Below are positions 37,422 to 58,747 of a DNA stretch of 64,000 nucleotides, in pieces; the stretch's first letter is position 1, and each line of letters starts with the position of its first letter. The notes under the pieces were generated by a model. The model ran no database searches. It was given only the letters and a program-made list of their open reading frames with translations, and was not told the origin of the DNA. Source of the stretch: a phage. The position numbers and the translations under genes are program-made. The DNA is taken from sequence record NC_135731.1. One strand, given 5' to 3'.

Positions 37422-40400
37422 TTAGTCGTGAGACTCGTTCCAAGGTCCCTGGAAGCTTGAGTTAGAACGACTAACGATCACAGTGGGACAGGAGATTGTG
37501 ACACTTGTCACGTTTGACGTTGACCACGGGGTGTAGATTTCAATAATAATGTCTATAGTTTGTTCACCTAGACCTGTTATCCCAATTGCACACATGCCAT
37601 CGTTGTCGTTTCCGTACTTCTTGCCAGCAAGGAGTTGATGACCAGCTATCCACGCATTTAGTTGGGAGTTGGCACGAGTACCTTTCAGTTTAAAGAAGAA
37701 TGTTACGTTCTTACCTTGACCTGAAACGTTATCTACGTATCTCCACCTCCAACGGCAAACCCTCTGCTGGGAGTTATGCACTGGAGCACAATCTCCGTAA
37801 GTCCTGTGTGCAACAATTGCACCTTCGAACTGGTTAGCACGGATAACAGAAGCTTCTACACGACCACGGAATGTACCTCCGGTTGCATCTATGGTACCTC
37901 TAAAGCTACCATTATTGGCATAAACATCTCCACGGAAGGTACCACTAGTGGCATTAACTGCCCCTGTGAAGTTACCAGAACTGGCGTTGATGTTGCCTTT
38001 CACCCACACATCCATAAATTGGGCATGCCCGTTCTTGTTAATATACCAACCGTATTTATGGTACCCGTTGCCATCGTAGTTGTTTGACGAAATTTCTTGT
38101 GCGATCTTGGCAGAGGAGATCGTGCCATTCTCTATAAAAGCGTCTTTCAAGAACGCTTGGTTGTTCTTGATTGCGAAAGCAAGGGTTGCTGTTCCATTTC
38201 CGGGGTTATATACCGCAAAGTTGTTTGCACTAACCATGAAGTATGATTGAACTTGTCCTCCAGACCCCTCCATGCCCAGCTGGATACCTGCCACATATTT
38301 ATTACCATGGCTGTCAACCTGAATCTTAGCTCCCCACTGAGCATCTATTTTACCCTCAAGTGTTGTTACAGCTTTAGAGGTATTAGATACTGTAGCCCTG
38401 AGCTCATCAATATTACCCATTTCGTCAACAATTTCTTGTTTTGCAGAGGTAAGTTCTTGACGGATCGCTGTGGCTGTATTATTAACAAGATCAACTGTTG
38501 TACTATTAGTTTCTTGAATAGATGCTTGCAGATTGGCAACCTCTTTCTGCACATCATCTTCCAGCTTGGTGATCTTCCCTGTAGCTGCCACCAGATCCTG
38601 CTTAATAGCTTCCGTTGTCTTATTTAGCAGATCGGTTGTTGCCTTGTTGGTTTCTTGAATAGAGGAGTTAAGTTTGCTCTCAGTGTTCTTCAACTCTTCC
38701 CGCAGAGTACCTTGAGTTGCAGTTATTTGCTCACTCAATGCTTGAGTTTTACGATTAACGAGATCAACGGTTGATCTATTTGTTGTCTCGATTAGTGACC
38801 CAAGCCTACCAGACTCTGCTGCAAGTTTATCGTCAAAGGATTGCTGAGCTGCTACCAGCTTACTGTTAAGGGCAGAAATTTCTCCATTAACCCCTGTAAA
38901 TTTTTCTGTCGTCTCTCTGACAACACCCTCTATTGTATCCCCAAGCTCTTCAAAAATGCTAGTAACACGGTCATTGACTGCACCAACATTTTTATCCATT
39001 TCCTTGACTGCATTATCAAGATTGGCGGTAAGCTCTTTATAAGTCTCTGTCTTTTTGAACTCAGCATCAATCTGTGGCATAAGATCTTCTATGGATGTGT
39101 AACAGCGGGCTGCACACTCCACAAAAGCAGATGAACCAAAAGCATTTGTTGTCCTGATATACCAGTAATAAATCTTATCGTTCTGCAGACCTTCAGATGT
39201 CCAAGTTGAACCAACACCCATACGAGTGGCTTTTGAAGTAACTGTTACATCACTGGTATCTGGCAATCTTGTCATCCCAGATGTCCAAAAGTCGTACTGG
39301 GTGCTTACACTAGCCAAGTCTCTGCTGTGCGGGATCAGGGTAATAGCAAAGTATCCCTGTTTAACCTCCACAGAAACAGGAGCTTCAGGTGCCTGAATGT
39401 TGAACTCACAATATGCTTCCGGAGATACGCCACCTTTATAAGATGTTGCAACCACGGTTGCTGTGTATGACCCCTTGGTCAAGCCTTCTACTCTGACAAA
39501 CTGCTCAACTGTTTGTGCTGTCCAAACAATCTCTCCGTTCTTTCTTACCTGCACAATATTTTGAGCGTAGGTCCCAACGTTGTCCCAAGCCAAAACACCG
39601 TGAGTTACTTCTCCAGCTTGGAGAACGGAATATCTGAAGTTTTGCGGTTGAGCTATACCAGATGGAGATATTGGAATATCTACATCACCAGAATCCGGAA
39701 GTTGACCCGTGGCATCATTCCACTCTTTAGCATCTTGACGAAGTTTTACCTTGACGCCACCCTTTTTGGTAAACTCCCATTCAAGAACTCTCATTTCTTG
39801 GCCCACTATACCAATACTTGGGAGGTCCATCGTAACGTAACGACCAGGTTTAAATTTGAAACCTCGCATATTGCAGGTGACTTCAATAATCCTACCAGCT
39901 CTGGCACGTCTTAGGAAGATTGCAGAAACACGCTGAGCTTGATAAGGACTGGTAACAAAACGATAGTCTATATCGATTATCTTTCTTTCTCCATCCTTCT
40001 CTATCCACTCTGGGACAAACACTGATGGAAAATCTGTTTCAGAATATCCTTTGGTCGGACTAGTGAATCTGCCAGTTATTGTGTTGGATCTTTTGTCAAA
40101 TGAGGCTTCCGGATAGATCTTTACCTCACCACAGACACAATCCTCACTCAGTGTCATTGTTGCCGGGCCATAGTATGCACCAACCAGCAAACCATACTTA
40201 CCAGCTACATAGCTGAGATCTGCGCCACAAGCTTTCAGCATTTCTGCCATAATACTTGCTGGTGCCTCATCCATATCGAACTCGCCATTAATTGTGTAAC
40301 GGCGCTCACTGGTTCCGTCTGCGTTTTTTACCTCCTCGTCACATATGTTGGCAGCCTCCTTGAAGGACTCCCAGTTGATGGTTTCGTCAGGACATTTAAG

Positions 40401-41021
40401 GTATGTTCTTAAATAGTCCAGAATCACTAAGGCCGCGTTATTGGTATACACCTCTTTACTGATGCGAGGGTCATAGCATTTTTTACCAACCTTGACCAGT
40501 GTAACGTTTGGCAACCCAAAAGGAAACTTATTAGGGTCAAACTTGAAGCTGGCACGCAGCCAACTGATCCCTCTACCTATCATATCTGGTGACCACGATG
40601 GGCAGTGTGTACCCATGAAAGGATCAGATGTTTTTCTGTCGTTATGTAGCTCCCACGATACCAGATCTCCATACGAGGAAATAGGATTACCGTCGATGAG
40701 TATGTCTTCTATACCTTCCAGAGGATGATTAGCAAGAACAATGGCACAATGGAGGGTTCTGTCTCTGTCCTGCTCCAAAAACGCAAGCAGCCCAGACGTG
40801 CGTGTCTTTCCATACACTACAGAGCAGGGTGCAGCAGAAGATCTGAGAAGCTTTTGTCTATCTTGCTGACTTCTGTAAGATTTGTTGCCCTCAAAAATCT
40901 TATCCAGAGTTCTGGTGGTAACAGTGTTCAGGCTGTCAGCCAGAGCTGCCTTGGATGCGTTCCAGTCATAGCTTGAAGATCTTGCAGAAGCAACGATGTT
41001 ATCAATCATTGCAATTGGCAT
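37422..41021 (-). CDS. lambda gpJ-like protein (tip attachment / host specificity family, with fibronectin III-like region)
   Basis: Several segments track recalled lambda gpJ: GYFAITLIPH vs GYFQITATPH; YYWYIRTTNAFGSSAFVE vs YYFYIRSVNTVGKSAFVE; NKYVAGIQLGMEGSGG...NNFAVYNPGNGTAT vs KHYVAGIGLSMEDTEEG...NRIAFIDPANGNET; N-terminal WESFKEAANICDE resembles the gpJ hub region. Confidence 0.75.
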   Translation of the reverse strand: MPIAMIDNIVASARSSSYDWNASKAALADSLNTVTTRTLDKIFEGNKSYRSQQDRQKLLRSSAAPCSVVYGKTRTSGLLAFLEQDRDRTLHCAIVLANHPLEGIEDILIDGNPISSYGDLVSWELHNDRKTSDPFMGTHCPSWSPDMIGRGISWLRASFKFDPNKFPFGLPNVTLVKVGKKCYDPRISKEVYTNNAALVILDYLRTYLKCPDETINWESFKEAANICDEEVKNADGTSERRYTINGEFDMDEAPASIMAEMLKACGADLSYVAGKYGLLVGAYYGPATMTLSEDCVCGEVKIYPEASFDKRSNTITGRFTSPTKGYSETDFPSVFVPEWIEKDGERKIIDIDYRFVTSPYQAQRVSAIFLRRARAGRIIEVTCNMRGFKFKPGRYVTMDLPSIGIVGQEMRVLEWEFTKKGGVKVKLRQDAKEWNDATGQLPDSGDVDIPISPSGIAQPQNFRYSVLQAGEVTHGVLAWDNVGTYAQNIVQVRKNGEIVWTAQTVEQFVRVEGLTKGSYTATVVATSYKGGVSPEAYCEFNIQAPEAPVSVEVKQGYFAITLIPHSRDLASVSTQYDFWTSGMTRLPDTSDVTVTSKATRMGVGSTWTSEGLQNDKIYYWYIRTTNAFGSSAFVECAARCYTSIEDLMPQIDAEFKKTETYKELTANLDNAVKEMDKNVGAVNDRVTSIFEELGDTIEGVVRETTEKFTGVNGEISALNSKLVAAQQSFDDKLAAESGRLGSLIETTNRSTVDLVNRKTQALSEQITATQGTLREELKNTESKLNSSIQETNKATTDLLNKTTEAIKQDLVAATGKITKLEDDVQKEVANLQASIQETNSTTVDLVNNTATAIRQELTSAKQEIVDEMGNIDELRATVSNTSKAVTTLEGKIDAQWGAKIQVDSHGNKYVAGIQLGMEGSGGQVQSYFMVSANNFAVYNPGNGTATLAFAIKNNQAFLKDAFIENGTISSAKIAQEISSNNYDGNGYHKYGWYINKNGHAQFMDVWVKGNINASSGNFTGAVNATSGTFRGDVYANNGSFRGTIDATGGTFRGRVEASVIRANQFEGAIVAHRTYGDCAPVHNSQQRVCRWRWRYVDNVSGQGKNVTFFFKLKGTRANSQLNAWIAGHQLLAGKKYGNDNDGMCAIGITGLGEQTIDIIIEIYTPWSTSNVTSVTISCPTVIVSRSNSSFQGPWNESHD

Positions 41022-41458
41022 TAATACCTCCAGACATCAACAACGATAGAATCTTTCATGTCGAACATAAAGACCCCTTTATCACCTTTCGCCCAAATCT
41101 GGTTGTTCCAGAACACACCAGCGGTGAGCCCGTTCAGACCCTCGAAGATAACAATATCGCCACGCTGAACCTGTTTAGGAGTATCTAGTCGAGTCATAAA
41201 GAGATCAAAAATAGTAGGTAGGTGTGTGGTTTTGAAACGGAGCATGCACCATCTTTTGCTTTCCAACTCTGTTTTATACGTTCCTTCGAAGTTAGAAAGA
41301 AAATCTGTTCCGTATTGGGCATCAACACACTTGGCTGCAAAGGTGCAACAATCGTGGAATCCCCATTCAAAAGGTATGGTGGCCTCTTCGTCAAACACTT
41401 TCCACAATCTTTCTTGCCAATCTACTAAACGAGGATGTGTGCTCATTAAACCTCCCAA
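41021..41458 (-). CDS. putative tail-tip assembly protein (145 aa)
   Basis: One of three short genes directly upstream of the gpJ-like gene, a position occupied in lambda by tip-assembly genes; contains a Cys motif FHDCCTF; assignment is positional only. Confidence 0.3.
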   Translation of the reverse strand: MGGLMSTHPRLVDWQERLWKVFDEEATIPFEWGFHDCCTFAAKCVDAQYGTDFLSNFEGTYKTELESKRWCMLRFKTTHLPTIFDLFMTRLDTPKQVQRGDIVIFEGLNGLTAGVFWNNQIWAKGDKGVFMFDMKDSIVVDVWRY

Positions 41459-42012
41459 ATGATCGGGCGGCTCGCCACCTGATCCACATATTTAAAAAAT
41501 CTGTCATTATCGTTTCTTGAGCTGTGGCTTTCCTCCGTGTACCGATAAGGAAAACCTCTTAACCAACTGTTGAAGATGGAAGAGATGGATATGGACAAAG
41601 CACTATTCTCACCTGTCTGAATAGCCATATCTGTTATAAGTCCGTCAAACAAGCCATTGGTTGTAACAGGCAGACCATTCTCCATAGCGGTAATGTACAA
41701 CGTGGCACGACAACCAGAATACTCCGTCTTCAGTAGATCACCAACATACTTAGGATCAAACCCGTTCAATGTTGCTACCACAGATCCGAAGTTGGTGGCA
41801 TCTTTCTCAGACACAGCAGTTAATGTTGCTGATCCACCTATCCCTATAAAATGTTGCCCCTCAATTACTACAACACCAGTGCCTGAGCACACCCTGACAG
41901 TCCCTGTCGGTAGCTCTAGCTTTGCAGCAATTAAGATCTCAACACCATCAAGCTCCAGCTTCTCAAGAAATAAATTATCTAATGGCGCTCTGATCATCTT
42001 AGAAATCCTCAA
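41446..42012 (-). CDS. putative minor tail protein (188 aa)
   Basis: Positional call, second gene upstream of the gpJ-like gene; no direct motif match. Confidence 0.3.
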   Translation of the reverse strand: MRISKMIRAPLDNLFLEKLELDGVEILIAAKLELPTGTVRVCSGTGVVVIEGQHFIGIGGSATLTAVSEKDATNFGSVVATLNGFDPKYVGDLLKTEYSGCRATLYITAMENGLPVTTNGLFDGLITDMAIQTGENSALSISISSIFNSWLRGFPYRYTEESHSSRNDNDRFFKYVDQVASRPIIWEV

Positions 42013-42589
42013 AGAAGGTGATAACTATATTATCACCTTTTTGCATAGCATCGACTTTTTGCTTAATTTTATAAATATCTCTGATATGAAACCTACCCTT
42101 TGGGGATTGAGTTATTATCTTCATAGTATCCCCTGCGGCAATAGGTTTTCTAAGTCTTGGAGATATGCTTATAACAGCAGACCCAACACCATCGCTGCGC
42201 ACTGGAGCTGTTACCACTTTCAACTCATCATTGACAGATATTTTATCCCCAGCTCTGGCTATGTCTCTGTTTGGCTCCCACCCAACCGTCTTCAAAAAAT
42301 CGTCGTTACCGGTAGGCCCAAGGGCGATTGGCTCATTAGCTGTAACTGAGTGACCGTAAGTTTTAATAAGAAAGATGTTTCCATCTTTATACACCTGATC
42401 AACAAAACTCTTAAGTTCCAGCAGCTGAGACTCGCTGATATTTGAAACCGTCAGAGTGCCTTTCCAGTTAGGTGTGGCATAGGTTACTTTTTGCGTTTTA
42501 CCTGTAAACGGACTTTTAAACGTAACAATATCTGCCAGCAGCTCCAATCTAATATCTGGAAGATATCTAGGCCTTTCCCATAAAAACAT
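41999..42589 (-). CDS. putative minor tail protein (196 aa)
   Basis: First gene after a promoter/terminator pair; GGAGG RBS; positional call only. Confidence 0.3.
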   Translation of the reverse strand: MFLWERPRYLPDIRLELLADIVTFKSPFTGKTQKVTYATPNWKGTLTVSNISESQLLELKSFVDQVYKDGNIFLIKTYGHSVTANEPIALGPTGNDDFLKTVGWEPNRDIARAGDKISVNDELKVVTAPVRSDGVGSAVISISPRLRKPIAAGDTMKIITQSPKGRFHIRDIYKIKQKVDAMQKGDNIVITFFEDF

Positions 42590-42620
42590 TGTGCCTCCAG
42601 GTTAAACAATCATGATAGTT

Positions 42621-42649
42621 ATTTTACCAGATTTTAAGTTAATACGCAA
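42621..42649 (-). promoter_or_regulatory. putative promoter with extended -10 (TTGCGT-17 nt-TGG-TAAAAT)
   Basis: Minus-sense -10 TAAAAT (plus 42621-42626) preceded by TGG, about 31 nt upstream of the ATG at 42589; weak -35. Confidence 0.45.
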
Positions 42650-42650
42650 T

Positions 42651-42681
42651 ACAAACAAAAAGCCCCCGCCGAAGCGAGGGC
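42651..42681 (-). terminator. rho-independent terminator after the long fibre gene
   Basis: Hairpin CCCTCGC-TTCG-GCGGGGG followed by CTTTTTGTTTGT on the minus strand, 8 nt after the stop at 42689. Confidence 0.65.
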
Positions 42682-42688
42682 AAAACAG

Positions 42689-45600
42689 TTACTTCAGTTT
42701 CTCTTGCAACCCAGCAACAACCTCTGTCAATTTTTTAACCTGCTCCTCAAGGGCGGTTATTTTATCGTCCTGTTCCCTGCAAACCTGGACAAGCAAGCCT
42801 GTTACAGCTGCGTAATCCACGCTGTAGAATCTTTCCTCTGTTATTAAAGGAGTTCCATCCTGATCAGGGTTTGGGATTTCCTTTCTTTGCACGAAAGAGC
42901 TAACTGCTTCCGGCAGCGCTTCAAGCACTTCTTGTGCTATAACACCTGCATAAGGCATACCGTTCTCTTTAAGAGTGTAAGTATAACCCTTCATCTTCCG
43001 GATAGCTTCTAACGCATCAGGAATAACAGATATGTTATCTTTCAGGTCTCTGTCAGAACTCTGATTGACAGATGTGCAATTCACAGCACCGTTTACAGAA
43101 AGATATCTTGATTTATCCGGCAAGGTACCGCAATGCCATACCCAATTTGCTTGAGACTCGTCACGAACCTTAAACTCTAACACGTTTGGACGATCCCCTG
43201 TGCTGCCGTTACCCCAATAATGGAGTACAGCATCATCCTTGGGTAAGCCATCTGCGTTGGAGGGAAGACCATTAGCACCGATATGAATTTCCAGTTGATT
43301 ACTGGTTTCACCAAAAATGTGATTAGGTCTTAACTGAATGCCCTTACCAGCATCGTGTCTCCATTCTTCCCAAGTAAAGACATCGCCAACGTAGTTACCA
43401 GCACGAGTATATCTGTCACCAAAATAGGTGATATATTCCTGCACACAACCTTGAGGTCTGTTAGCTGTGTTTTTGTAAACAAGCAGTGTACCAGCGTACG
43501 GAGCAGGGTAGTGGCGATCTGTTACAAGTGCGTCAGCGTTTGAACCCTGGTGATAGAAACCTTCACGGCTACCATCGTAGTCATTAAGGTCTTCTGTCCC
43601 TAGACCTTGACCACGGTGCTGAATAACTTTGTTCCACGCCCTGTGGTTTCCCTGCTCTATGGAACGAGTGTACAACTGGTCTAAACGACCTGCCATCTGG
43701 AAAGCGTAGTTTCCAGAAAATGCCACAGACAGTCCGCCAACAACCATTGAACCTTCAGGTCCGTTGACGTTGCCAGCCAGTATTTTGGATGGGTTGTTAG
43801 GCCCAAACTGGTTGTTCCAGTCTGCACCCGTATGACATACAAAACCACCTGGTGCCGAGAAAGTACCATCTTTGTTGAAATTGTAGAATCTGTGAGCAGA
43901 ACCTACAACATCACGAACAATAACTTGACCAGCCTCTGGAGTAGATCTGAACTCTGCCTGACCTTTGAGACCAGCACCATTACCGCATTTGGAGGTAAAC
44001 GTACCGTTAGTCAGATCCTCTGTCCCATCTGATGCACACTGGAAGCCTGCATTAGAGAATAACGCCTTTCTAGGACTGCCGTAGCACAAATAGTCAAGAC
44101 CGTCGGCGCATAGCTCGACTTTTGGCATATTCATTTTGCTCATCACAGCATAGCGTTCAGCAGTGCCTATATAGTGCCACTGTGTGCCGCCACCAGTGTA
44201 GAACCCTGAAGTCCCTTTGAAGTCAACAATAGGTCTGGTGTTGGTATTATTATCTCCAAGAACAGCAAGATTCAAATCTGCTGACTGGAGAGGTGCAACG
44301 AACTTAACACCGTCCTGATTGTCTGTTACAGAGCCAACCTGGTAATCTTGCTCCCTGGTAAACACCTCGACAACATTTCTACTTGCGTATATGCTGACAG
44401 GGAAAGCACGCGCCTCTGCATAGAAAGCAACATATTCTTGTTTACCCCTTGTTGGAGCAACCATCCCAAGAAGTGCTTTTTCATTCTGGTAGAAATTTAC
44501 TACCCCGTAGAAAGAGTCTCCTCTGTCTGTCCAACCACCAGTTCTATAGTGACACTGCAGAGTCGCACAGTTCATAGGGTCACTGCCGGATGACGATCTG
44601 GTAACTATGGTAATATCAGTGCCAGTTGCTGGAGCATAGTACGGATCTGTTCTGACGATAATTGGGTAGTATTTCCCATCTTCCATCCCTGCGGTTCTTG
44701 GCAGTGTTAAGAAGTCTTTTACACCTGCTGCTATAGGAACTTTGAACAGATTCTGAGCATCTGCTAAAGTTGTGGCCCCAGTACCACCTGCGGCGTGAGG
44801 TAAAGGTTCCCACTTGGCCTTCCGGTTGTTATAAACACCCCATTCCAGAGTGCCGTTACCGGATTCATCCATCCCGCCATCCCAGATGACCATCTTGGCG
44901 GCTTTCTTGGATCCCCAGAAGCCTCTTTCTGCTCCTGAACTGCGGATCCACTCTCCAAGTCCCCAGTTTGTCAGCTGACCAGTAAGATCCCCAACCTGCA
45001 TGTATTTAGGACAATCTAAGACCCCATCCTCACGGAATCCTAAATATCTATGAGTTTCAGATCCTTTTGCGCCTTTGTGCAGGTGGATTGTCAACCAAGC
45101 TTTGTTATCGTTCCTTACCTCAGAGTAAATCCTATACCCATGCTCAAGGACACCATCAGCGCTGTATTTGTCTCCGTTAACAATACCTGATGCTGACTTA
45201 ACATCAGCAGAACTTTGAGACAGGTAAAGGTGACCGAAGGTAGGGGAGTTTCTAGACCCGAGACCGATGTGCGCTCTAAAGGTCTCATCGTTACGAGGTC
45301 TGACCATCGGCTGCCATGCAGTCCACTGATTTGTGTCGGCCTGATAGGTTCTCAAATACCAAACATCTACGTTAGAGAATGGATAGTATTCCTGACGACA
45401 ACCTGTACCGCCGTTAGCATTGTTCTGCCAAACAATCAAGTGACCAGCACCAGAACCTGCAGGGTATCCATTTGCCTCAGTTGCATAAGCAGTCATTGGC
45501 TGGTAGTATACACCATCCTGATTACCAGTCAAGTTATTGATATTGAAATTTGGCTCAAGGGCTGCACGTTGCTTATAGAAAGCACCGATATTGATACGGA

Positions 45601-50536: not shown

Positions 50537-51214
50537 TTAGTGCGGTCCACTTGTCTCGCCATCAGGGCAAGAGTGGGTATGACCTTTATATTCTGCATAG
50601 AATGAATCCAAATCCACACCAGCAGCAGTTATAATTCTACCAGATGGGTCTATTGTGGCACCATTCATTCTGATATTTCCATCCACAGCAGCTCGCAAAT
50701 TGGCAGCACCGTTAGTGAAAGAAAACTCCCCGCTGCTGTCGCACCGTAATGTCCCACCCGGTGTTTGAAGCTCAAAATCTCCAGAAGGTGTCAGTTTAAA
50801 ATAGACCTTATCATTCCATAACTCTACGTTATCAGGATCGATCTGTAAAGCGTTTGAGTCTGAATGAACAGAGGTTATTGCCCACCCAGGAAACAGGCCG
50901 TGAGTTTGTTGATCGTCGTTATTGTTTTCATTTCTCTCTGAAAACTGCAATCCTACAACATCACCAGCTTTAATAGGAAGTGTTAACCTTGCCTTTCCAC
51001 TGTTTGCAGACATCACCTGAATTGGAACGTCATAGATAAGAGGGTATCTCTCCACATCTCCATCATCAAACGTGGTTTCAGCTATTGGCTGCACGGCTGC
51101 AGAAGGGATACTGTAGTCTACACTGACAACTCTGGCCCTGATACTGGTGTGGTAGTCCCTCATTATTTTTTCTATAAAGGATCTTACAGCAGCATCTTTC
51201 CTATTTATTGCCAT
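50537..51214 (-). CDS. baseplate central spike protein (P2 gpV / Mu gp45-like)
   Basis: C-terminus KGHTHSCPDGETSGPH resembles the recalled P2 gpV terminus (HTHKHPGDSGGTTGSPL) with its His-x-His apex motif; N-terminal LPIKAGDVVGLQFSERN fits the OB-fold part of such spikes. Confidence 0.55.
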   Translation of the reverse strand: MAINRKDAAVRSFIEKIMRDYHTSIRARVVSVDYSIPSAAVQPIAETTFDDGDVERYPLIYDVPIQVMSANSGKARLTLPIKAGDVVGLQFSERNENNNDDQQTHGLFPGWAITSVHSDSNALQIDPDNVELWNDKVYFKLTPSGDFELQTPGGTLRCDSSGEFSFTNGAANLRAAVDGNIRMNGATIDPSGRIITAAGVDLDSFYAEYKGHTHSCPDGETSGPH

Positions 51215-52218
51215 TATACCTCCTCAGTTTTGTCAACAACTCCACCCACTGTTTCCCCAAGGCCAAGCTCTGTAGTGTAATCACCTCCTTCTATGGTGCC
51301 CTTATGATGCACCGTGATCACCTTATAGAATCCTGTATATTGCTTGCTTTTAAGATAAATAGTGGACTCTGGGAGGATAGCTCCGTTAAGGCATGTGGTT
51401 ACAGTAAGGCCAACATCCTCTCTCGGGTTTTTCTTTTTCTTTTTAGATGTCGAACCACCTTTGGCAGCAGCTTTAGCTTTTCGTTTTTTAGCAGGTTCTG
51501 GATTTTTAGGGGTAGGAGATCCATGCATCCCAGACTCTGCACTTATTTCAAACACAGAGTCTTTGAACCTTTTTCCAACCTTGGTCCAATACAAAGCCCC
51601 ATCCTGAACGCTAAATGTGGAGTTGGTCAGCCTTGCAAACCTGCGGAGGTTCTCTGCAGTGTTTCCAGAGAAAGCCATAGAGTATTGTAAAGTCTGGTTT
51701 CCAAAACCCACAACCCTACCTTTTGGCAAGTTCATATCCTTCAGTAGGTCATTAAGCACAGAGTTCAGAGGTGTGCCTTTCTGATAAGATCTTGTGCTTT
51801 GGCACTTAATGATGTTCTCAGTGCCATCCCCAAAGATGAACTTAGTTTTTCTGGTCGGACCTTCCCATCTGTCTTCAACAAACTCCACAGTTCCGGAGAA
51901 TATCAACTGGTTCTCATTATCATAGCCAGCTTCAAACATAACTGCAAGGGCATCGGCCTGATGCATATCCAAATAGTTAACTGTATCGTCAGACAGGTTG
52001 TAAACTGTCACATAACCTTTGTTTGGCTCTTTGGTATTGTCCTTTTGTATGTCAAACTCTATATTGGCAGCACCAGTGTCCGAGCTAACTTCATAGACTC
52101 CGGAATCACTCTCCCCTTTCTTTTCAACAGATTTTGGGATATTGGTTTTTGATTTACCACCATGTTCTACAGGACGACCAAACAATAATCGCCATGTTCT
52201 ACGTCTGTACTCTGCCAT
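51214..52218 (-). CDS. putative baseplate or tail structural protein (334 aa) with lysine-rich segment
   Basis: Position between the tape measure and spike genes; internal basic stretch KKRKAKAAAKGGSTSKKKKKNPRE; no motif match. Confidence 0.35.
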   Translation of the reverse strand: MAEYRRRTWRLLFGRPVEHGGKSKTNIPKSVEKKGESDSGVYEVSSDTGAANIEFDIQKDNTKEPNKGYVTVYNLSDDTVNYLDMHQADALAVMFEAGYDNENQLIFSGTVEFVEDRWEGPTRKTKFIFGDGTENIIKCQSTRSYQKGTPLNSVLNDLLKDMNLPKGRVVGFGNQTLQYSMAFSGNTAENLRRFARLTNSTFSVQDGALYWTKVGKRFKDSVFEISAESGMHGSPTPKNPEPAKKRKAKAAAKGGSTSKKKKKNPREDVGLTVTTCLNGAILPESTIYLKSKQYTGFYKVITVHHKGTIEGGDYTTELGLGETVGGVVDKTEEV

Positions 52219-52598
52219 TATTCTAACCCTTGCTGTTCCTTGTAAAGATCAACCGGGGTGCCGTATACAAGTTGTAGCTCAGATCTCGCCCCAAGGTTAT
52301 ATCTTCCAACCCTGCCCCAATATTGATCGTCTTTAAACGACAGCGCCATCAGTCTACCTTTCGGTAAATCATCTCTGTAATGCAGTCCGTCTAAAATATC
52401 TTGACAAGCTGTTACTTTTCTGGTTACTAAAGGACTGTCACCTACTGGACCAAGAGATAACCACCAGGACTCATCCCTCTCATTCCATTGCATACGCATT
52501 TCATACGTTTCATTGTCTAAAACAACACGCATGGTTTGATCAGGAAAGCCGTCAATGTCCCACACAAAGGTGATTATGCACCAATCTTTAAGCTCCAT
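52218..52598 (-). CDS. putative tail structural protein (126 aa)
   Basis: Co-directional with stop/start overlap in the tail module. Confidence 0.35.
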   Translation of the reverse strand: MELKDWCIITFVWDIDGFPDQTMRVVLDNETYEMRMQWNERDESWWLSLGPVGDSPLVTRKVTACQDILDGLHYRDDLPKGRLMALSFKDDQYWGRVGRYNLGARSELQLVYGTPVDLYKEQQGLE

Positions 52599-52610: not shown

Positions 52611-53495
52611 TTATTTCCCGTTAACTTTGTTGTAGTTTCCCTGCTCAGATGGGACTATGGTAGAAGGTCTTCCATATTCCTGATAATACCAATCCGCAGC
52701 CGATTGGGTAACACCGTTTTCATCTGTCCACATCATAGATTTGTATGGCTGCCACTCCTCTGCAGCGTTTGTGGATGCAGTGTCTGCGAATGCTCCTGTG
52801 TCCCTCTTGTTACCTACGTTACTACCATTCTTACAGTCGTTGACAGCGCCTTTTTGTTGGGTCTTGCCTACTTTCTTAGGATTGCTGTATACAGTTGCAT
52901 TAACAACCTTATTCAAGTAGAATGTGCGGAACTCTGTAAGTTCTACATCAAACACCATTGCAGCGCCTTCACCAACAGACTTGTTGGCAGAAAGACTGGT
53001 TATGATGTAGTTCTCAAGAAGTCTCTCCTCGGTAACCAAAGAAACCAACTGGCGCTTATTAATGATCTCAGTCAAAGCCTCCAGTGCAGCGCCCGGTCGC
53101 ATAGATGCTGCAGGGTTTTTAGAGTCAGTATTCCTGTCAATGTAGTTTTGCTCATAGATTATATGTGGAGATGTATTTACCCTGCCAGTAAAAGAAAATA
53201 CACCATCTTTAATTACAGCGTGGTCTGACAGGGTAGATTTATCTTCCACCGCAAACCCAGTCTTATCAACAGAATGTTTGAAAGAGTAATTCTCAACCTG
53301 ATCGAAGATAATGGCAAGATCGTTAGTAAAGTTTTTACCCTTCATCTCCGTATTGCGACCACCATAGTTAAGACCGCTGACAAACATAGTATACTTTACA
53401 TCGCTTTCAGTTTGCTGCTCTGCCTTTTCAGCCTTTGGAGATTTAACCTCTTGAGGCTTGTACAGGTCTTTTTCATCAACTATATTGCTTGGCAT
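52611..53495 (-). CDS. putative tail structural protein (294 aa), first gene after the tape measure gene
   Basis: GGAGAGG RBS; preceded by its own promoter-like element and the tape measure terminator. Confidence 0.4.
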   Translation of the reverse strand: MPSNIVDEKDLYKPQEVKSPKAEKAEQQTESDVKYTMFVSGLNYGGRNTEMKGKNFTNDLAIIFDQVENYSFKHSVDKTGFAVEDKSTLSDHAVIKDGVFSFTGRVNTSPHIIYEQNYIDRNTDSKNPAASMRPGAALEALTEIINKRQLVSLVTEERLLENYIITSLSANKSVGEGAAMVFDVELTEFRTFYLNKVVNATVYSNPKKVGKTQQKGAVNDCKNGSNVGNKRDTGAFADTASTNAAEEWQPYKSMMWTDENGVTQSAADWYYQEYGRPSTIVPSEQGNYNKVNGK

Positions 53496-53561: not shown

Positions 53562-53588
53562 GATAAAATAAAGGGGGCCGGAGCCCCC
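53562..53588 (-). terminator. rho-independent terminator after the tape measure gene
   Basis: GGGGGC-CGGA-GCCCCC hairpin followed on the minus strand by TTTATTTTATC, 12 nt after the stop at 53600. Confidence 0.65.
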
Positions 53589-53599
53589 TGCACAGTTTA

Positions 53600-55936
53600 T
53601 TACCAAAGGTCGGTAGACATGAAGTTGATATCTTTATTGTTCTCCCACTCAAGTTTTGCATCAAATATTTTGTTAAACTCACCCTCATCTATTGAAATCG
53701 TGATTTTCCCATCACTGATCTCTAAAGGTAGCATTTCCATAGTTCTTAATTGAGAAGCAAAACCAGGGCCACCCGGCAACGGAAGAGTCCCGCCCGGTAA
53801 GGTGTCCAAAGGATTAACAAACCCGTTACCTCCCGATATGATATCTTTGCGAATCATATCGCTGATAGTATCCAGCTGCTGATTTCTTTCACTTAGTGGG
53901 TTGTAACGGTCATTAAATAATTCCCCGGCGCTTAGTATTGTACCGATAATGCCCAGCTTACCGAGCAGACCAACTTTGCCACCAGGTGTCTTGAGGCCAC
54001 CCCCACCTTTTCCTGCCGGAGCTCCACCACCAGATCCTTCTGTAGTAGCGGCACCCGCTGCTCCAGCTGCACCCCTTAGAGAGTTAAGGAATTTAAAGGT
54101 TTTTACAAGCATGGATGCCATGACAAAACCTTTTGTTAGGGCATTGACTACCAGCATGATGGCAGCAGCAAACCCTGCCCATTTAGCATAGCTAAAGGTG
54201 TCATGAAGCTCTTCAGAATATTCCTTCGTCTTAGCTGTTATGAATCCCCATTTAATCCCCCATTCAAGGAAAAACATGCGGATCTTGACTATGGTGTTGT
54301 TTAGTTCACCAACTACCCAGTTAAGGCCTCTCACAAACCCGCTAACAAAATCACCAGAGGCATCCCACACAAATTGCAGAGTCTCACCAGTGCGGATCAG
54401 TGTATAATAGAACTCTGTCAGTTCGTCAGACCAACGGGTGAACAGTTTCTGACGAGTCAGTTCGATGAAGGTTTTCAGTCTGTTTTCTGCCAGCACGTTA
54501 GACTTCTGCATTCTTTCATAACCAGCTGCAGATGCCTCGTTCATGTACTTAGCCACATACTTCATGATCTTGGCTGTTTTAACCTCACCTTTCTTCATCA
54601 TGTCCATGAACTGATCCATGGAGAGTTCAGAAAGACCAAAAGCCTCTTTGGTGGCCTTGATAAAAGGTTCGTATGCACCGGGCAATGCTTCAGCAAGTTG
54701 TTGCTTCAGTTCTTCGGACATTACTTGTCCCTTGCCTAGCATCTGTTGGATAGCCATAATACCACGCTGGTATTTTACCTCATCGGCACCATAAGCAGCA
54801 GCATACTGGGAGTATGCAGAGAACAGCTCATGAACCTCCTGATTTGTCATCTGGTTTTTGGCGTTTACCGACATCTGGGCGTAACCTTGAAGACCAGATT
54901 TGAGATCAAAACCAAGACGCATAGCCTCTTGCTGGACAAACGCAACCTCACTGTTGGCTTTGTTTGGATCTCCAGTAACAGCAGTAAGAGCAGCACTTGC
55001 ACCCTCCATCATGTGACCGGATCTGTTAACAGCAGTAAATCCAGAAAAAGCCGTATACGCAGCTGTTGCATTAATAACAGATCTACGTAAGTCTCTCATG
55101 GCATCGCCTAGTGTAAGCGTTTGGCTGGTGGCGCTTTTAAACCCAGACTGCAGCGCTGACAGGTGGGCGTTAAAGGTTGACTTCTTCATCTCCCCGCGAG
55201 CAAACCTGGACTCTAACTCTGAGTATCCTGGCAAGCTTCCACGGAATCCGGCCCCATACTTGGCAGAAAGTCTTATCGCGGAGTTGTAGAGGTGGGTTCT
55301 CCTTGCCTCACGATCCGACATAAGCTTATTATCCATACCAGCTTTACTGTCTCTTCTTAGCTGTCTATGATAACGATTCATAGCGGCTGTCTGAGCTTTC
55401 ACAAGGTTAGGGTCGGAAGCCACACCACCCATATTAGGGTTACCGGGGATATATTTGAAAGATTTGGCATTAGCCAAAACTCTTGCCTTAGGTGCCTTAT
55501 AACCACCGTAAGACACTGGTGCAGATTTGGCAGCCTTTTTGGCCTCTTTAGCTTGCTGCTGGTAGAACTTACGCATCCTAGCCATTTCTGGATTTTTAGC
55601 GGTAAGATTACCTACAGCTTGTTTACGTCTCGCATTCTCCCTACGTTCTATTGCAGCCCTTACTGCAGCCTCTTTCTTGGCCTGTGCTACGCTCTCTCTG
55701 TGCAGCTTAGCATTTGCCTGAGATTGCTGTCTGGCAACCCGCTGCATTGTCTGCTGGGTTTTAACAGCTACCGCCTGCCATCTACTCATGGGGTTGGCTG
55801 AGTTAAAATCTTCGCCCAGTTTCCTGAACTCCCTCCCAATACTGCGAATTTTCTCTACAGCTTTTTTGTAGGAGGAGTTCTCTATCTCAAAGCCAATCTT
55901 GTTGACTGTTGTGGCAACTATTTTGTTTGTAGCCAT
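53600..55936 (-). CDS. tail tape measure protein (778 aa)
   Basis: Long, low-complexity helical protein with Ala/Gln/Lys-rich segments, a hydrophobic segment (WAGFAAAIMLVVNALTKGFVMASMLV) and a Gly-rich tract; lies directly downstream of the frameshifting chaperone pair, the canonical tape measure position. Confidence 0.7.
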   Translation of the reverse strand: MATNKIVATTVNKIGFEIENSSYKKAVEKIRSIGREFRKLGEDFNSANPMSRWQAVAVKTQQTMQRVARQQSQANAKLHRESVAQAKKEAAVRAAIERRENARRKQAVGNLTAKNPEMARMRKFYQQQAKEAKKAAKSAPVSYGGYKAPKARVLANAKSFKYIPGNPNMGGVASDPNLVKAQTAAMNRYHRQLRRDSKAGMDNKLMSDREARRTHLYNSAIRLSAKYGAGFRGSLPGYSELESRFARGEMKKSTFNAHLSALQSGFKSATSQTLTLGDAMRDLRRSVINATAAYTAFSGFTAVNRSGHMMEGASAALTAVTGDPNKANSEVAFVQQEAMRLGFDLKSGLQGYAQMSVNAKNQMTNQEVHELFSAYSQYAAAYGADEVKYQRGIMAIQQMLGKGQVMSEELKQQLAEALPGAYEPFIKATKEAFGLSELSMDQFMDMMKKGEVKTAKIMKYVAKYMNEASAAGYERMQKSNVLAENRLKTFIELTRQKLFTRWSDELTEFYYTLIRTGETLQFVWDASGDFVSGFVRGLNWVVGELNNTIVKIRMFFLEWGIKWGFITAKTKEYSEELHDTFSYAKWAGFAAAIMLVVNALTKGFVMASMLVKTFKFLNSLRGAAGAAGAATTEGSGGGAPAGKGGGGLKTPGGKVGLLGKLGIIGTILSAGELFNDRYNPLSERNQQLDTISDMIRKDIISGGNGFVNPLDTLPGGTLPLPGGPGFASQLRTMEMLPLEISDGKITISIDEGEFNKIFDAKLEWENNKDINFMSTDLW

Positions 55937-55990
55937 GGTTTCCTCATAATAAAAAGGGCCAGATCCCAGAAAAGGAATCCGGCCCTTAGA

Positions 55991-56356
55991 TTATCCTCTC
56001 CTGCGCTTAGCTTTCGCAGCAGCTGCGGCAGCCTTCTGCTCCCGCTCCATTTCCCTGTTTTGGACGGTATCTAGGAATTCTTCGATATCAAGATACTCAC
56101 AGAGCTTCAGGAAATACGCCATATCTGCAAGATTTAGCGATTCAAAATTTTCCCCTTTGAAATTCTTGAGCACCCTGCACCAAAGAAAGTCGAACCAGTT
56201 GAGTGAACTGTTCTTAGCTGCCCACTCGCTGGCCCTCACAACAACCTTGCTTATTCCTGCTCTTCCGGAGTCTGATCCAGGTTGTTCACCTGCTGAATCA
56301 TACCCATCTGCTGTAACATCTCCAGAAGGCTTCCTAAACCGTCTTGTGTGAAAAAA
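55991..56356 (-). CDS. tail assembly chaperone, -1 frameshift extension frame (T-like part of a G/GT-type pair)
   Basis: The frame of the 82-aa ORF (GTG at 56239) is open upstream to a stop at 56366-56368 and overlaps the 3' part of the upstream chaperone ORF in the -1 frame; a slippery heptamer lies at 56350-56356. Confidence 0.5.
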   Translation of the reverse strand, partial: FFHTRRFRKPSGDVTADGYDSAGEQPGSDSGRAGISKVVVRASEWAAKNSSLNWFDFLWCRVLKNFKGENFESLNLADMAYFLKLCEYLDIEEFLDTVQNREMEREQKAAAAAAKAKRRRG

Positions 56357-56724
56357 CAGCCGTAGTTAACCTCCAGAACCTTACCTGCCAGCTTAATCAT
56401 CTCCAGCAGATGCCCTGCAAACACAACATCTGGGTTAAGCTTATCCACACCATCCACAGTAATATCTTCGAACAAGATTTTAAATAACTCTTCAATGGAG
56501 TTATCATCAAGTTCTTGGAACAGGTAAGCCAGGGCTGTAGGAAGGACCTCTGCCATATTCTGACCACCTGAGAGAATAGATCCACCGATAGCACCTAGCG
56601 GGACAGCCACAATCTTACCGATTTTAGGCATGTTTTTCATTGCTTTCATCGGTCCCCAGTGGGTGATCACAAAGTTGTGCCCTGCTAAATCAATCTCTGT
56701 TGTAGGTCTAAAGTTTATAGCCAT
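56251..56724 (-). CDS. tail assembly chaperone (G-like, 157 aa)
   Basis: Small acidic protein immediately upstream of the tape measure gene, with a downstream overlapping -1 frame; RBS AAGGATG; driven by the promoter at 56768-56796. Confidence 0.6.
   Translation of the reverse strand: MAINFRPTTEIDLAGHNFVITHWGPMKAMKNMPKIGKIVAVPLGAIGGSILSGGQNMAEVLPTALAYLFQELDDNSIEELFKILFEDITVDGVDKLNPDVVFAGHLLEMIKLAGKVLEVNYGCFFTQDGLGSLLEMLQQMGMIQQVNNLDQTPEEQE
56350..56356 (-). other. candidate -1 programmed ribosomal frameshift site (T TTT TTC)
   Basis: X XXY YYZ heptamer in the zero frame of the chaperone ORF (codons TGT TTT TTC, residues CFF) inside the region where the -1 frame is open. Confidence 0.45.
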
Positions 56725-56751
56725 TTTATAGCATCCTTATTAGTCATGTTG

Positions 56752-56789
56752 TGCACCATATTTGTGTATTTTACCATGATTATGGTGCA
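56752..56789 (-). promoter_or_regulatory. inverted repeat (TGCACCATA ... TATGGTGCA) overlapping the chaperone/tape measure promoter; candidate operator
   Basis: Perfect 9-bp arms at 56752-56760 and 56781-56789 separated by 20 bp; one arm lies in the promoter spacer, the other just downstream of the -10. Confidence 0.4.
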
Positions 56790-56796
56790 TTGTCAA
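56768..56796 (-). promoter_or_regulatory. strong sigma70-type promoter (TTGACA-17 nt-TAAAAT with TGG extended -10)
   Basis: Minus-sense perfect -35 TTGACA (plus 56791-56796), 17-nt spacer, TGG then TAAAAT (plus 56768-56773); about 45 nt upstream of the chaperone ATG at 56724. Confidence 0.6.
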
Positions 56797-56837
56797 TTTA
56801 ACCTTTCAAGCAATTCAAGAACGTGTGTCAAAACCAT

Positions 56838-56868
56838 AAAAGCAAAAAGCCCCACCCGAAGGTGAGGC
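56838..56868 (-). terminator. rho-independent terminator after the tube-like gene
   Basis: Hairpin GCCTCACC-TTCG-GGTGGGGC followed on the minus strand by TTTTTGCTTTT, 19 nt after the stop at 56887. Confidence 0.65.
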
Positions 56869-56886
56869 TTATGCTAAAGTGTGCCC

Positions 56887-57360
56887 TTAGATAATACCTG
56901 CAAGACCTGCGAGGCCAGTAAGAGCACCAGTGATGTTATCACGGTTGAGCCATGCATCCAGAATACCGATATCCCAGTCAAGTTGGCCCACTTCTGTTCC
57001 GTAAGTCAGGTCAGGCTGTTTCTGGATCCAACCGATTGTGGAAATACCAGGACCCTGGCTACCTTCCAGCAGAACCGGGAAGAATACCAGGCCAGTAATC
57101 GATGCCTGTTTCTGCCAGTCAGAAAGGTAAGCGTTCCATACAGAAGTGTTCTGCAAAGACACAGTCATAACACCGGATTGGTTACGGGACAGAGCCGCAG
57201 ACATTTCACCATCCACACCGACGTGAGGATAAATGTTGTCCTCGTTTCTTGAAACAACAATCTTAGTGTCAGCAGCGAAGCCAGTGACACGCTGCTGCAT
57301 CAGATACAGTTTGACCTTTTTAGGGTCATACGCATAAGGAGTTAAAATTTGAGTTTCCAT
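56887..57360 (-). CDS. putative tail tube protein (157 aa)
   Basis: Small protein directly after the sheath-like gene and before the chaperones, the tube position in P2/Mu-type contractile tails; followed by a strong terminator. Confidence 0.45.
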   Translation of the reverse strand: METQILTPYAYDPKKVKLYLMQQRVTGFAADTKIVVSRNEDNIYPHVGVDGEMSAALSRNQSGVMTVSLQNTSVWNAYLSDWQKQASITGLVFFPVLLEGSQGPGISTIGWIQKQPDLTYGTEVGQLDWDIGILDAWLNRDNITGALTGLAGLAGII

Positions 57361-57370
57361 CTAGGCTTCC

Positions 57371-58747
57371 TTATTCAGTCATTGCAACAGCACTGGTGGA
57401 TTTAGAACCAACTTTGTCCAGAAGGACGTTGATCCGGATACGAACGAAGTGCAGGGCGTTATTATACACCAGTTCTACTTTCACACCTTCCAGAACACGA
57501 GCAGCCAACTGATTGGTTGGGATTTCTGCACGTTTAGGAACTGTGATGATCGGGTCGTAGAATACATTATTGTCTTCGTCGAAACCTGTCAGGATCGCAC
57601 CATTCTTAATGCCAGTGTTGATTGGGTTGTTCATCAGGACAGACTTGATAACCGGAAGATCATCATCAGACATCTTCATGCTTAAACCCATATTGGAGCG
57701 ACGATGCATGTACCCAAACATGGATTCTTCAGATCTGAACTTGATCCAGTGTGCAAAACGAATAGCGTCTGCATACTGACCTGAAGCACACTTGCCTTCC
57801 CAGAAAGCACCAACACCGTTAATCATTCTGTAGAAGTTAACGTGGTTTTCCCAAATCGCCATACGCTGAGTTAAAGTCAGAGATGGTGCAATCACACCCG
57901 GCATCTGTTTTAAGTGCAAGCTGTCACCGTAAGACGGATCGTTGGATGCCATAGCGCCTACGATACCACCCTCTGGAAAATCTTTATCAGCACGAGGATC
58001 GTACATGCCAACACTGTCATACTGTGCAGCCATCAGTTTGGTGGCGATGTTATTATCTTTACCAGTCACATCTTCTGCAGTAGAGTAGACATGCAGCTTG
58101 TAGTTAGCCTGAGCCCACTTAGCACATGCTTCAATGTCGGTGTGGTCTTCATGGCACAGGAAGTACCAATTGTCACGCTCAGCATTGATCTTATCAACTA
58201 CTGTAGAAGGTTTTTCAGCATTGGCGATATTTTTGATTGTATAGTTACCAGTATGGTAACCAACAGTGCAGTCACCAGTGATGGTGAGAACACCTTCAGC
58301 AGCCTCTACAGTGATATCGTTCAAGCTATCATCTGCTTCAATTTTAGTCTTCATTGACTCTGCAATCTGAGTTGCACCTGTTCCACCAGAGATAGGCACT
58401 ATCAAAGAAGTATTGTAGCTACCTTTTGCAATAGTCATTACGACATCGGTATCAGCTGCGGCAGCAATACCTTTAAAATCTACAGTGGTCTTTTCTTTGG
58501 CCTGTCTGCCGATCATAACGTATTGTGGAGGGAATACACCACCAAAAGCTTTTGCTGCAAACTCATACGCTGCAGAGCCTTGTGCGAAACCATCTTCCAC
58601 CATCTGATCCAGCTCAGCATACACGCGAGCTCGCTCAGTAAAGTTGTTGTGGATAGCGATGAACAGCGGAGTTTCGAAACCTACAGTGTCAATAGGCTGG
58701 GTTCCGAGGTTAACTGTAACATCTACCACTTTATCTAAATATGGCAT
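57371..58747 (-). CDS. putative tail sheath protein (458 aa); alternative is a large siphovirus-type tail tube protein
   Basis: Size and position; C-terminal region HVNFYRMINGVGAFWEGKCASG resembles the conserved sheath motif recalled from P2 FI (LIRRDGFRFWGNRT) and T4 gp18 (VIRTFPGRGVVVWGARTL). Confidence 0.5.
   Translation of the reverse strand: MPYLDKVVDVTVNLGTQPIDTVGFETPLFIAIHNNFTERARVYAELDQMVEDGFAQGSAAYEFAAKAFGGVFPPQYVMIGRQAKEKTTVDFKGIAAAADTDVVMTIAKGSYNTSLIVPISGGTGATQIAESMKTKIEADDSLNDITVEAAEGVLTITGDCTVGYHTGNYTIKNIANAEKPSTVVDKINAERDNWYFLCHEDHTDIEACAKWAQANYKLHVYSTAEDVTGKDNNIATKLMAAQYDSVGMYDPRADKDFPEGGIVGAMASNDPSYGDSLHLKQMPGVIAPSLTLTQRMAIWENHVNFYRMINGVGAFWEGKCASGQYADAIRFAHWIKFRSEESMFGYMHRRSNMGLSMKMSDDDLPVIKSVLMNNPINTGIKNGAILTGFDEDNNVFYDPIITVPKRAEIPTNQLAARVLEGVKVELVYNNALHFVRIRINVLLDKVGSKSTSAVAMTE

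Follow-up and report, generated by a model that had tools for sequence, protein, structure and literature searches.

The window analysed here is a stretch of 64,000 nucleotides of phage DNA (sequence record NC_135731.1), and this report concerns the tail module at positions 37422-58747, in particular four adjacent genes within it that resemble the tail tip genes of siphoviruses and that we refer to as the cassette. Every gene in the module lies on the minus strand. The region matches Escherichia phage phiWec196 at 100% identity and over 100 Vequintavirus records (rV5-like myoviruses with genomes of about 137 kb) at 95-98%, and at least 80% of it is covered in 112 phage records; it represents the tail module of an E. 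coli Vequintavirus. A sequence-only reading had described it as a mosaic of a contractile-tail set and a large protein of the lambda gpJ type, and had offered two alternatives: either the gpJ-like protein serves as a fibre, or a 458-amino-acid (aa) protein is a siphovirus tube and a spike-like protein has another role. All the open reading frames (ORFs) that it named are present on the minus strand at the sizes it gave (458, 157, 778, 225, 865, 1268 and 1199 aa, together with 196, 188 and 145 aa at 41021-42589), and the mosaic is real.

The last of the four cassette genes (gene 4; 37422-41021, minus strand) encodes a pb3/gpJ-type hub-fibre protein of 1199 aa, recognized by Pfam, PHROG, phmmer and profile searches. 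It consists of a polar N-terminus (residues 1-47), a hub region (48 to about 492), an Ig_J region (493-652), a coiled coil (about 653-877), a J tip-fibre domain (878 to about 1040) and a variable head (1041-1199). Pfam places Ig_J at 493-545, Ig_J_second at 547-652 (E=2e-30) and Phage_Tail_Tip at 878-1017 (E=1.6e-38), with a weak Phage-tail_3 match in addition. In phmmer, residues 497-665 and 875-1036 align with residues 666-832 and 842-991, respectively, of lambda J (8iyk_J, E=5e-28), and phrog_31, 'central tail fiber J', spans residues 143-1057 (E=8.5e-165). The hub region was examined with a profile made from six sequences of residues 1-495 (the window protein and five siphovirus homologs) and searched against PDB sequences. 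This profile matched T5 pb3 with E=4e-21 over pb3 residues 263-317 and 414-718, followed by a T1 J-like protein (2.4e-5), the J-like tip protein gp24 (2.5e-5) and residues 267-481 of lambda J at 0.04; the Mesorhizobium 'megatron' and the RcapNL tail protein also match the hub region. The rV5 genome paper had reported an HHpred match of the ortholog, gp37, to a Mu-type hub, and had found gp37 in virions. The earlier suggestion that the 1199-aa protein tracks gpJ over hub-like and fibronectin-like regions is therefore borne out and extends to the tip-fibre region. Because the resemblance covers all three, the possibility that only fibronectin type III (FN3) domains are shared with gpJ falls away; judged from these alignments, the likeness takes in the hub, immunoglobulin-like (Ig) and fibre regions.

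The protein is a relative of lambda J and not its equivalog, as the NCBIfam model lambda_TipJ scores 155 bits (154.7) against a cut-off of 1950. The alignment to lambda J ends near residue 1036 and leaves the lambda receptor-binding C-terminus unmatched, and for the last 160-200 residues no close relative was found outside Vequintavirus. At the opposite end, residues 1-47 (40881-41021, minus strand) are polar in Vequintavirus and invariant between three Vequintaviruses, whereas the corresponding segment is Gly/Ala-rich and transmembrane-like in four siphovirus homologs. The best 19-residue hydropathy within the first 45 residues is 1.7-2.5 in four siphovirus J proteins, compared with 0.31 here, where nine residues are charged. 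The missing hydrophobic segment fits the loss of a conduit or plug role. The rV5 ortholog, with 1279 aa, carries 80 extra residues in the form of four insertions, all of which fall inside the coiled coil (residues 684-830; about 38530-38970, minus strand), so that the length of the fibre differs between close relatives. Public names for the protein conflict; it appears as 'host specificity protein J', 'central tail fiber J' and 'tip attachment protein J', and under a fourth name as 'lateral tail fiber protein with fibronectin type III domain'.

Three short genes precede it, in what had been proposed to be the position of tip-assembly genes. Searches of the PDB with the single sequences of the 196-, 188- and 145-aa proteins found nothing, and six-sequence profiles of the 188- and 196-aa families returned nothing meaningful from PDB sequences, so that fold prediction was needed. 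Cassette gene 1 (41999-42589, minus strand) encodes the 196-aa protein, and the top ten Foldseek matches of its model (predicted local distance difference test, pLDDT, 76) are all of the T5 pb9 type, at 2e-8 to 3.6e-5. On the strength of this predicted fold, the protein is identified as a distal tail protein (Dit) with a tube-like N-domain and an accessory domain. Cassette gene 2 (41446-42012, minus strand; 38% identity to JenP2 gp18) encodes the 188-aa protein, whose AlphaFold2 (AF2) model (pLDDT 75) matches T5 pb3 (7zhj_b, 2e-6) and lambda gpL (8iyk_L, 4e-5; TMq 0.51), and then T1 9l9p_J (1.3e-4), RcGTA 6tba_7A (2.5e-4), the Chi tip protein and JBD30. It is accordingly modelled as a gpL-like hub subunit, with the fold of gpL and of hub N-termini. 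Homologs of this protein were collected with a search seeded by an alignment of siphovirus homologs, the 188-aa protein alone having given three proteins, and Pfam scans of distant homologs yielded only a weak PF09931 hub hint (E=0.089). As the hub profile of the 1199-aa protein matches pb3 only from residue 263 onward, and the 188-aa model itself has a pb3 fold, the 188-aa protein and the N-terminal part of the large protein seem to correspond to a pb3 divided between two chains.

gpL carries a C-terminal iron-sulfur site with four cysteines. The 188-aa protein has two cysteines only, in RVCSG and SGCRA, and so is without such a site. Cassette gene 3 (41021-41458, minus strand) encodes a 145-aa protein of Pfam family DUF6950 (E=3e-33), which has about 2100 cluster representatives in a library of 1.84 billion proteins. 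A profile of 125 DUF6950 sequences gave borderline matches, over the GD...G segment only, to MepS (0.0056), CwlO (0.05) and RipA (about 1.5); Cys37 is invariant in the 125 sequences, and the usual catalytic His is not conserved. The 145-aa protein may thus be described as borderline NlpC/P60-like. With a predicted Dit fold, a predicted gpL fold and a P60-like profile, the three short genes can be assigned to the tip complex, as their position had suggested.

The boundaries of the cassette suggest that the four genes form an operon of their own, enclosed by strong terminators and provided with a promoter-like motif. At the upstream boundary (42621-42681, minus strand) a TTCG-loop terminator hairpin at 42662-42681 is followed by an extended -10 motif, TGGTAAAAT, at 42621-42629, and at the downstream boundary (37349-37411, minus strand) a TTCG-loop hairpin at 37396-37411 is followed by TTGACT-17-TAAAAT with TGGTAAAAT at 37349-37357. 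The terminator that had been noticed after the tube gene is built in the same manner (56725-56886, minus strand), with a GC-rich hairpin, GCCTCACC-TTCG-GGTGGGGC, and a T-run, and then TTGACA-17-TAAAAT with TGGTAAAAT at 56768-56776. The window has five copies of the motif, where 0.8 would be expected, and every one is on the minus strand (25908, 37349, 42621, 56768 and 60289). The four sites that were placed, all but the one at 25908, are intergenic; one precedes the cassette, and the others precede the genes for the wedge, the chaperone and another structural protein. TGGTAAAAT is probably the extended -10 element of the phage's late or structural promoters.

The contractile set is complete without the cassette. 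The 458-aa sheath protein (57371-58747, minus strand; Pfam DUF3383) aligns end to end, over residues 3-454, with the phiTE sheath (9cb9_A, phmmer E=1.2e-142) and also matches phi92 gp130 (21vm_B, E=6.6e-48), so that its homology to sheaths solved in both extended and contracted tails is full-length; the two tail states of phi92 are described in PMC13450770. rV5 is a myovirus by electron microscopy, with a contracted sheath seen (PMC3606486), and a report on phage FV3 (PMC6357053) describes polysheaths built by the orthologous protein. The tail tube protein, as had been supposed, is the 157-aa product of 56887-57360 (minus strand; Pfam KPP10_Orf10, E=7e-9; NCBIfam gp105_phage_fam, 95 bits), which is annotated as tube in DrSchubert and as rV5 gp52. 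The tape measure protein of 778 aa (53600-55936, minus strand; Pfam TMP_3, E=2.5e-18) is followed by the axial tube initiator of a myovirus baseplate, 294 aa long (52611-53495, minus strand; Pfam Dit_like, E=2.4e-22), which is kept in SSE121, KB57 and 4L372D and matches phi92 gp135 in position. Next come a baseplate plug of 126 aa (52218-52598, minus strand; Pfam Pam3_gp18, E=3e-18), in the position of phi92 gp136, and an axial baseplate hub of 334 aa (51214-52218, minus strand; phrog_196 'baseplate hub', E=2e-83; NCBIfam orf58_phage_fam).

The central spike, 225 aa long (50537-51214, minus strand), had been singled out for a His-x-His C-terminus like that of P2 gpV, and this identification stands. 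By phmmer it matches the phiTE puncture protein (9cuy_Y, E=2e-62) and, over residues 8-218, the crystal structure of phi92 gp138 (3pqi_A, E=1.6e-18); Pfam finds the spike N-domain (E=1.4e-9), and its single H-x-H motif is HTH at residues 212-214 of 225. From its sequence it belongs with P2 gpV and phi92 gp138, iron-loaded spikes with an OB-fold N-domain, a beta-helix and an H-x-H apex, and like them it would bind iron. Beyond the spike lies a 238-aa protein (49808-50524, minus strand; phrog_4233 over residues 1-205 only; phrog_120 wedge), probably the sheath initiator by analogy with phi92 gp139, whose position it occupies. It extends by about 33 C-terminal residues (about 205-238; 49808-49909, minus strand) past the PHROG profile and the SSE121, KB57 and 4L372D homologs, the SSE121 and KB57 matches ending at residues 202-204. 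In phiTE the C-terminus of the sheath initiator meets the N-terminal helical bundle of a fibre (PMC11972413), and the additional residues are a candidate docking element for a genus-specific fibre. Downstream of the cassette are a baseplate wedge protein of 496 aa (35825-37315, minus strand; Pfam Baseplate_J; 60% identity to SSE121 and KB57) and a second baseplate (wedge) protein of 228 aa (35127-35813, minus strand; phrog_4056 'baseplate protein', E=2.5e-103).

phi92 and phiTE share orthologous sheath, tube, tape measure, tube initiator, plug, hub, His-x-His spike, sheath initiator and wedge proteins with this phage, whereas their descriptions, on which this comparison is based, contain no complex of the Dit, gpL or J type. 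In the cryo-electron microscopy of phiTE (PMC11972413) and phi92 (PMC13450770) these orthologs sit on the tail axis with the spike tip free, and in phiTE the C-terminus of the tape measure protein is buried within the orthologous hub and spike (PMC11972413). The phage thus encodes a complete, orthodox contractile tail, the axis of which is occupied by its own tube initiator, hub and His-x-His spike. Two Dit-type proteins are present in the genome, namely the axial tube initiator at 52611-53495 (Pfam Dit_like) and the cassette Dit at 41999-42589 (pb9-like fold), and there are likewise two hub systems, the 334-aa hub on the one hand and the 188-aa protein with the N-terminus of the 1199-aa protein on the other. 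With the cassette inserted beside the contractile set, Vequintavirus therefore encodes two full hub systems, a point that we have not found stated elsewhere.

The four genes have a recognizable home. In JenP2 (Nonagvirus) the tape measure gene is followed by genes for proteins of 197, 194, 138 and 874 aa (gp17-gp20), in cassette order and with 32, 38, 44 and 49-54% identity to cassette genes 1-4. Not only Queuovirinae such as JenP2 but also PY54, Pseudomonas phage psageK9, Acinetobacter phage (Lokivirus) D0 and RcapNL have the same four genes of similar size in the same order after the tape measure gene, and identity reaches 57% for the N-termini of Seuratvirus J proteins. We further examined 80 IMG/VR loci, chosen by a relative of the hub region. 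The four genes were present in the same order and on the same strand in 80 of 80, and an ORF of at least 450 aa (median about 1100 aa) ended no more than 1.5 kb upstream of the Dit gene in 79 of 80; six of seven such upstream ORFs that were sampled contained tape-measure Pfam domains. None of the 80 loci matched the sheath, tube, tube initiator, plug, hub, spike, sheath initiator or wedge of the window. By gene order and sequence, then, the cassette is a portable unit at home in the siphovirus tail tip.

Among myoviruses, the comparison of genomes shows a cassette confined to Vequintavirus. In tblastn with the hub region, 116 records matched at 95% or more and the remainder at less than 60%, the best of these being Seuratvirus and Nonagvirus siphoviruses at 57%; the Vequintavirus wedge gene was likewise found at 95% or more in 116 records. 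The cassette genes were not found in the sister genomes Seunavirus SSE121, Phapecoctavirus nieznany, Mydovirus KB57 and Aeromonas phage 4L372D, all four of which match every core tail and baseplate gene and in which the fibre genes run directly into the wedge gene. Virion descriptions of phi92 (PMC13450770), phiTE (PMC11972413) and W70 list no such cassette proteins, the genomes of phi92 and phiTE themselves not having been screened. RefSeq notes on rV5 record that ORFs 37-40 resemble PY54 proteins, and we found no paper that interprets this resemblance. The simplest history would be one acquisition by the ancestor of the genus from a siphovirus of the Queuovirinae kind. With identities of 32-57%, either the donor is unsampled or the event is old.

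The surroundings and the parts of the cassette differ from those in siphoviruses. There it follows the tape measure gene and provides the sole tail tip, whereas here it lies more than 11 kb from the tape measure gene, between fibre and wedge genes; the 1199-aa gene has tip-assembly genes next to it, and it is the myovirus tube initiator that comes directly after the tape measure gene. The figure of about 11 kb given in the sequence-only reading for the gap holds as an approximation, the distance being 9.5 kb from the spike stop codon and 12.6 kb from that of the tape measure gene. In the J protein itself, the siphovirus N-terminus is hydrophobic and the one here polar; the 1199-aa protein also has a longer coiled coil, and its C-terminal head is not related to theirs. 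Among solved structures, T5 offers the closest counterparts, pb3 being the best match both to the hub part of the 1199-aa protein and to the 188-aa model, and pb9 the best match to the 196-aa model. The T5 hub, however, is one chain of 949 aa with a separate central fibre, pb4, whereas here the hub is split and the fibre is fused to it, and as far as examined T5 has no DUF6950 gene in this position.

Lambda shares the gene order of ring, gpL-type hub subunit, P60-type protein and J (gpM, gpL, gpK, gpI and gpJ), and its likeness to the cassette lies in the sequence matches to the Ig and tip-fibre domains of J, in the gpL fold and in the weak hub match (E=0.04). It differs in that the cassette has no gpI equivalent, its Dit is of the two-domain pb9 type and not a 109-aa gpM, its P60-like protein is without an MPN domain and the catalytic His, and its J-type protein has no LamB-binding C-terminus. 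The nearest relatives are therefore the Queuovirinae siphoviruses and T5 pb9/pb3, and not lambda itself. The baseplate genes g12-g15 of RcGTA, presumably coding for Dit, hub, peptidase and megatron in that order, follow the same four-gene logic, with the small proteins matching at the level of fold only; the 292-aa chain 6tba_7A that matches the 188-aa model we take to be the hub protein g13.

The cassette is maintained. Computed against phages Murica and DrSchubert, the dN/dS values of all four genes are 0-0.07, in the same range as those of sheath, hub, spike and wedge; the cassette is under purifying selection, domesticated and in use. Of the 21-22 amino-acid differences in the 1199-aa protein, 11-13 fall in residues 1041-1199 (7-8%, compared with at most 1.8% elsewhere), as would be expected if the head binds a receptor. 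The table of rV5 virion proteins obtained by mass spectrometry (MS) contains four gp37 peptides, one of which comes from the hub region and is also present in the window protein. This dataset comprises 19 proteins in total, with 5 spectra for gp37, 9 for gp41 and 15 for the sheath, a depth too shallow to tell 3 copies of gp37 from 18. The three small cassette proteins are not among the 19, and since the tube initiator, plug and hub were missed as well, their absence means little.

We propose that the acquired siphovirus tip complex now serves as an extra, off-axis receptor-binding device on a contractile-tailed phage, and we put the probability of this at roughly 60%. The four-gene cassette would have been gained by the ancestor of the genus, put under the late-type promoter motif of the phage and kept by purifying selection. 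Its products would assemble as they do in a siphovirus, into a closed trimeric cone of three J and three gpL-like subunits capped by a Dit ring. As the tape measure protein and the tube end on the myovirus's own hub, the cone would not be a DNA conduit; it would instead be mounted off-axis on the baseplate, where it would anchor one more receptor-binding fibre, with the C-terminal 160 or so residues of the 1199-aa protein contacting the cell. The proposal agrees with the first alternative of the sequence-only reading, a gpJ-like protein used as something other than the axial tip.

Several points weigh against it. The lineage of the donor is judged from its present closest relatives, at identities of 32-57% only, and of the four proteins just the large one has been seen by MS, in that small dataset. 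No structure or label locates any of the four in a Vequintavirus virion. The 7-9.5 Å maps of phages Bas49 and Bas54 located three other fibres only, out of nine annotated, and density that was fitted by no fibre model is mentioned with them. In addition, the docking of a six-fold Dit ring on a wedge or on another fibre would be without known precedent.

A first rival would place the complex on the axis. One Dit-gpL-J cone under the baseplate would enclose the His-x-His spike, the 1199-aa protein would be a central fibre, and a receptor would open the cone, releasing or triggering contraction. In its favour, the hub domains are intact, with few changes and under purifying selection, and T5 pb3 is known in closed and opened cone states (PDB titles 7zhj and 7zqp), but the tape measure protein ends in the myovirus hub and not in the cassette cone, and the hydrophobic N-terminal segment of the siphovirus versions has been lost. 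A six-fold Dit ring could suit the six-fold underside of the wedge ring, whereas the descriptions of phiTE and phi92 show an unobstructed spike tip and mention no site at which a ring could dock. The low number of gp37 spectra in rV5 virions (5 versus 9 for gp41) would also be in keeping with a single central fibre, in data too shallow for copy counts; no central fibre was reported from the Bas49 and Bas54 baseplate reconstructions. On balance we consider an axial arrangement unlikely. More doubtful still, in our view, is a true sipho-myo hybrid tip in which the cone, on the axis or beside it, would act as a functional sensor opened by the receptor and a J-type central fibre would gate or trigger sheath contraction.

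A second rival grants a structural role to the 1199-aa protein only and would make the Dit-like, gpL-like and DUF6950 proteins assembly factors or chaperones that stay outside the finished particle. In lambda, some of the tip-assembly proteins, gpK among them, are required for assembly without being prominent in the virion. That the three small proteins went undetected in rV5 virions would fit such a role, but the same analysis of 19 proteins also missed the tube initiator, plug and hub, and in each of the solved tips that match (T5, lambda, T1, Chi, JBD30 and RcGTA) the Dit and gpL-type proteins form part of the structure. Moreover, the 1199-aa protein is without the part of the hub that precedes pb3 residue 263, and it is the gpL-like protein that has that fold. 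We regard this explanation as improbable.

The view of the cassette as a remnant of recombination, decaying or carried along as a passenger and without a role in the virion, can be rejected with little hesitation. Absence of the cassette from all sister genera compared does imply that a tail of this type can be built without it, but all four ORFs are intact in 116 records, their dN/dS values are low, they have a promoter-like motif and terminators of their own, and the large protein is present in virions. The idea of a non-contractile tail, in which the 458-aa protein would be a siphovirus tube, the gpJ-like protein the true tip and the spike-like protein something else, is refuted: the complete siphovirus tip cassette is the only thing that could hint at it and we found nothing else in its favour, whereas the 458-aa protein is a genuine sheath of a contractile tail, contracted sheaths and polysheaths have been seen in close relatives, the spike, hub, tube initiator and wedge are orthologous to proteins placed in situ in phiTE and phi92 (PMC11972413, PMC13450770), and the myovirus tube initiator, not the cassette, comes after the tape measure gene.

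The phage, its genes and the J-like label were already known, and the resemblances to PY54 and to a Mu-type hub were noted years ago. What we have not found stated anywhere is that one myovirus genus carries a complete siphovirus tip cassette, T5 pb9/pb3-like and lambda gpL/J-like, in an operon of its own. In going beyond the earlier description of a gpJ-like protein with three short neighbours, we conclude that the four genes are a complete, portable siphovirus tip cassette and a genus-specific insertion. Database naming can be corrected in consequence, as 'central tail fiber J', 'distal tail protein' and 'lateral tail fiber with FN3 domain' are parts of one cassette in Vequintavirus. Contractile and non-contractile tail tips are usually treated as alternative designs, and here both are retained by a group of E. 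coli phages that is abundant and in therapeutic use. Should the complex prove to be attached to the baseplate, entire tips made of several proteins would be transferable between tail types and could be put to new use as anchors for fibres, which would widen the range of exchangeable host-range modules. The complex may also explain the unassigned density in current Vequintavirus maps (EMD-51868 and EMD-51869), where such density adjoins the head of the 'TC8' fibre.

The fibre genes upstream of the cassette begin with a small protein of 222 aa that has a Tail_spike_N anchor domain (49130-49798, minus strand; Pfam PF18668, E=2e-10) and continue with a large fibre or spike protein of 865 aa (46531-49128, minus strand), which is 35% identical over its full length to SSE121 and nieznany proteins by tblastn. 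The third is a variable lateral fibre of 1268 aa (42689-46495, minus strand), with a Tail_spike_N anchor and a C-terminal S74 chaperone in Pfam, and with 88-92% amino-acid identity between Vequintaviruses. Its last 200 or so residues (42689-43400, minus strand), S74 chaperone included, share 44% identity with the C-terminal end of the JenP2 lateral fibre gp25, a second sign of gene flow between Queuovirinae and Vequintavirus.

Between the tube and tape measure genes lies the tail assembly chaperone pair (55991-56724, minus strand), formed by a 157-aa protein at 56251-56724 (Pfam Phage_TAC_15, E=1e-23) and an 82-aa ORF in the -1 frame. A slippery heptamer, T_TTT_TTC, is located at 56350-56356 (minus strand), 105 nucleotides ahead of the stop codon of the chaperone gene. 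Reading in the -1 frame is uninterrupted from 56365, just upstream of the heptamer, through to the stop of the 82-aa ORF. The frameshifting chaperones of the sequence-only reading are thus present as genes, and a -1 frameshift of the lambda G/GT type is plausible from these signals. In public records the pair is given as two separate ORFs, with no frameshift product annotated.

Eighteen records labelled 'Campylobacter phage' with Campylobacter jejuni as host (for example MG065646 and MG065647), all unannotated, are about 97% identical to the present E. coli Vequintavirus over 21 kb, and their host labels look doubtful. Downstream of the wedge genes, a 690-aa protein (33055-35127, minus strand) has NCTSP_N, TIM-barrel_NCTSP (E=4e-80) and Calx-beta matches in Pfam; a homolog occurs in Phapecoctavirus nieznany (43%), and none in SSE121 or KB57. 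Its NCTSP families presumably derive from the non-contractile sheath protein gp65 of podovirus N4. The protein has been tied to ECA/NGR glycan binding in published work.

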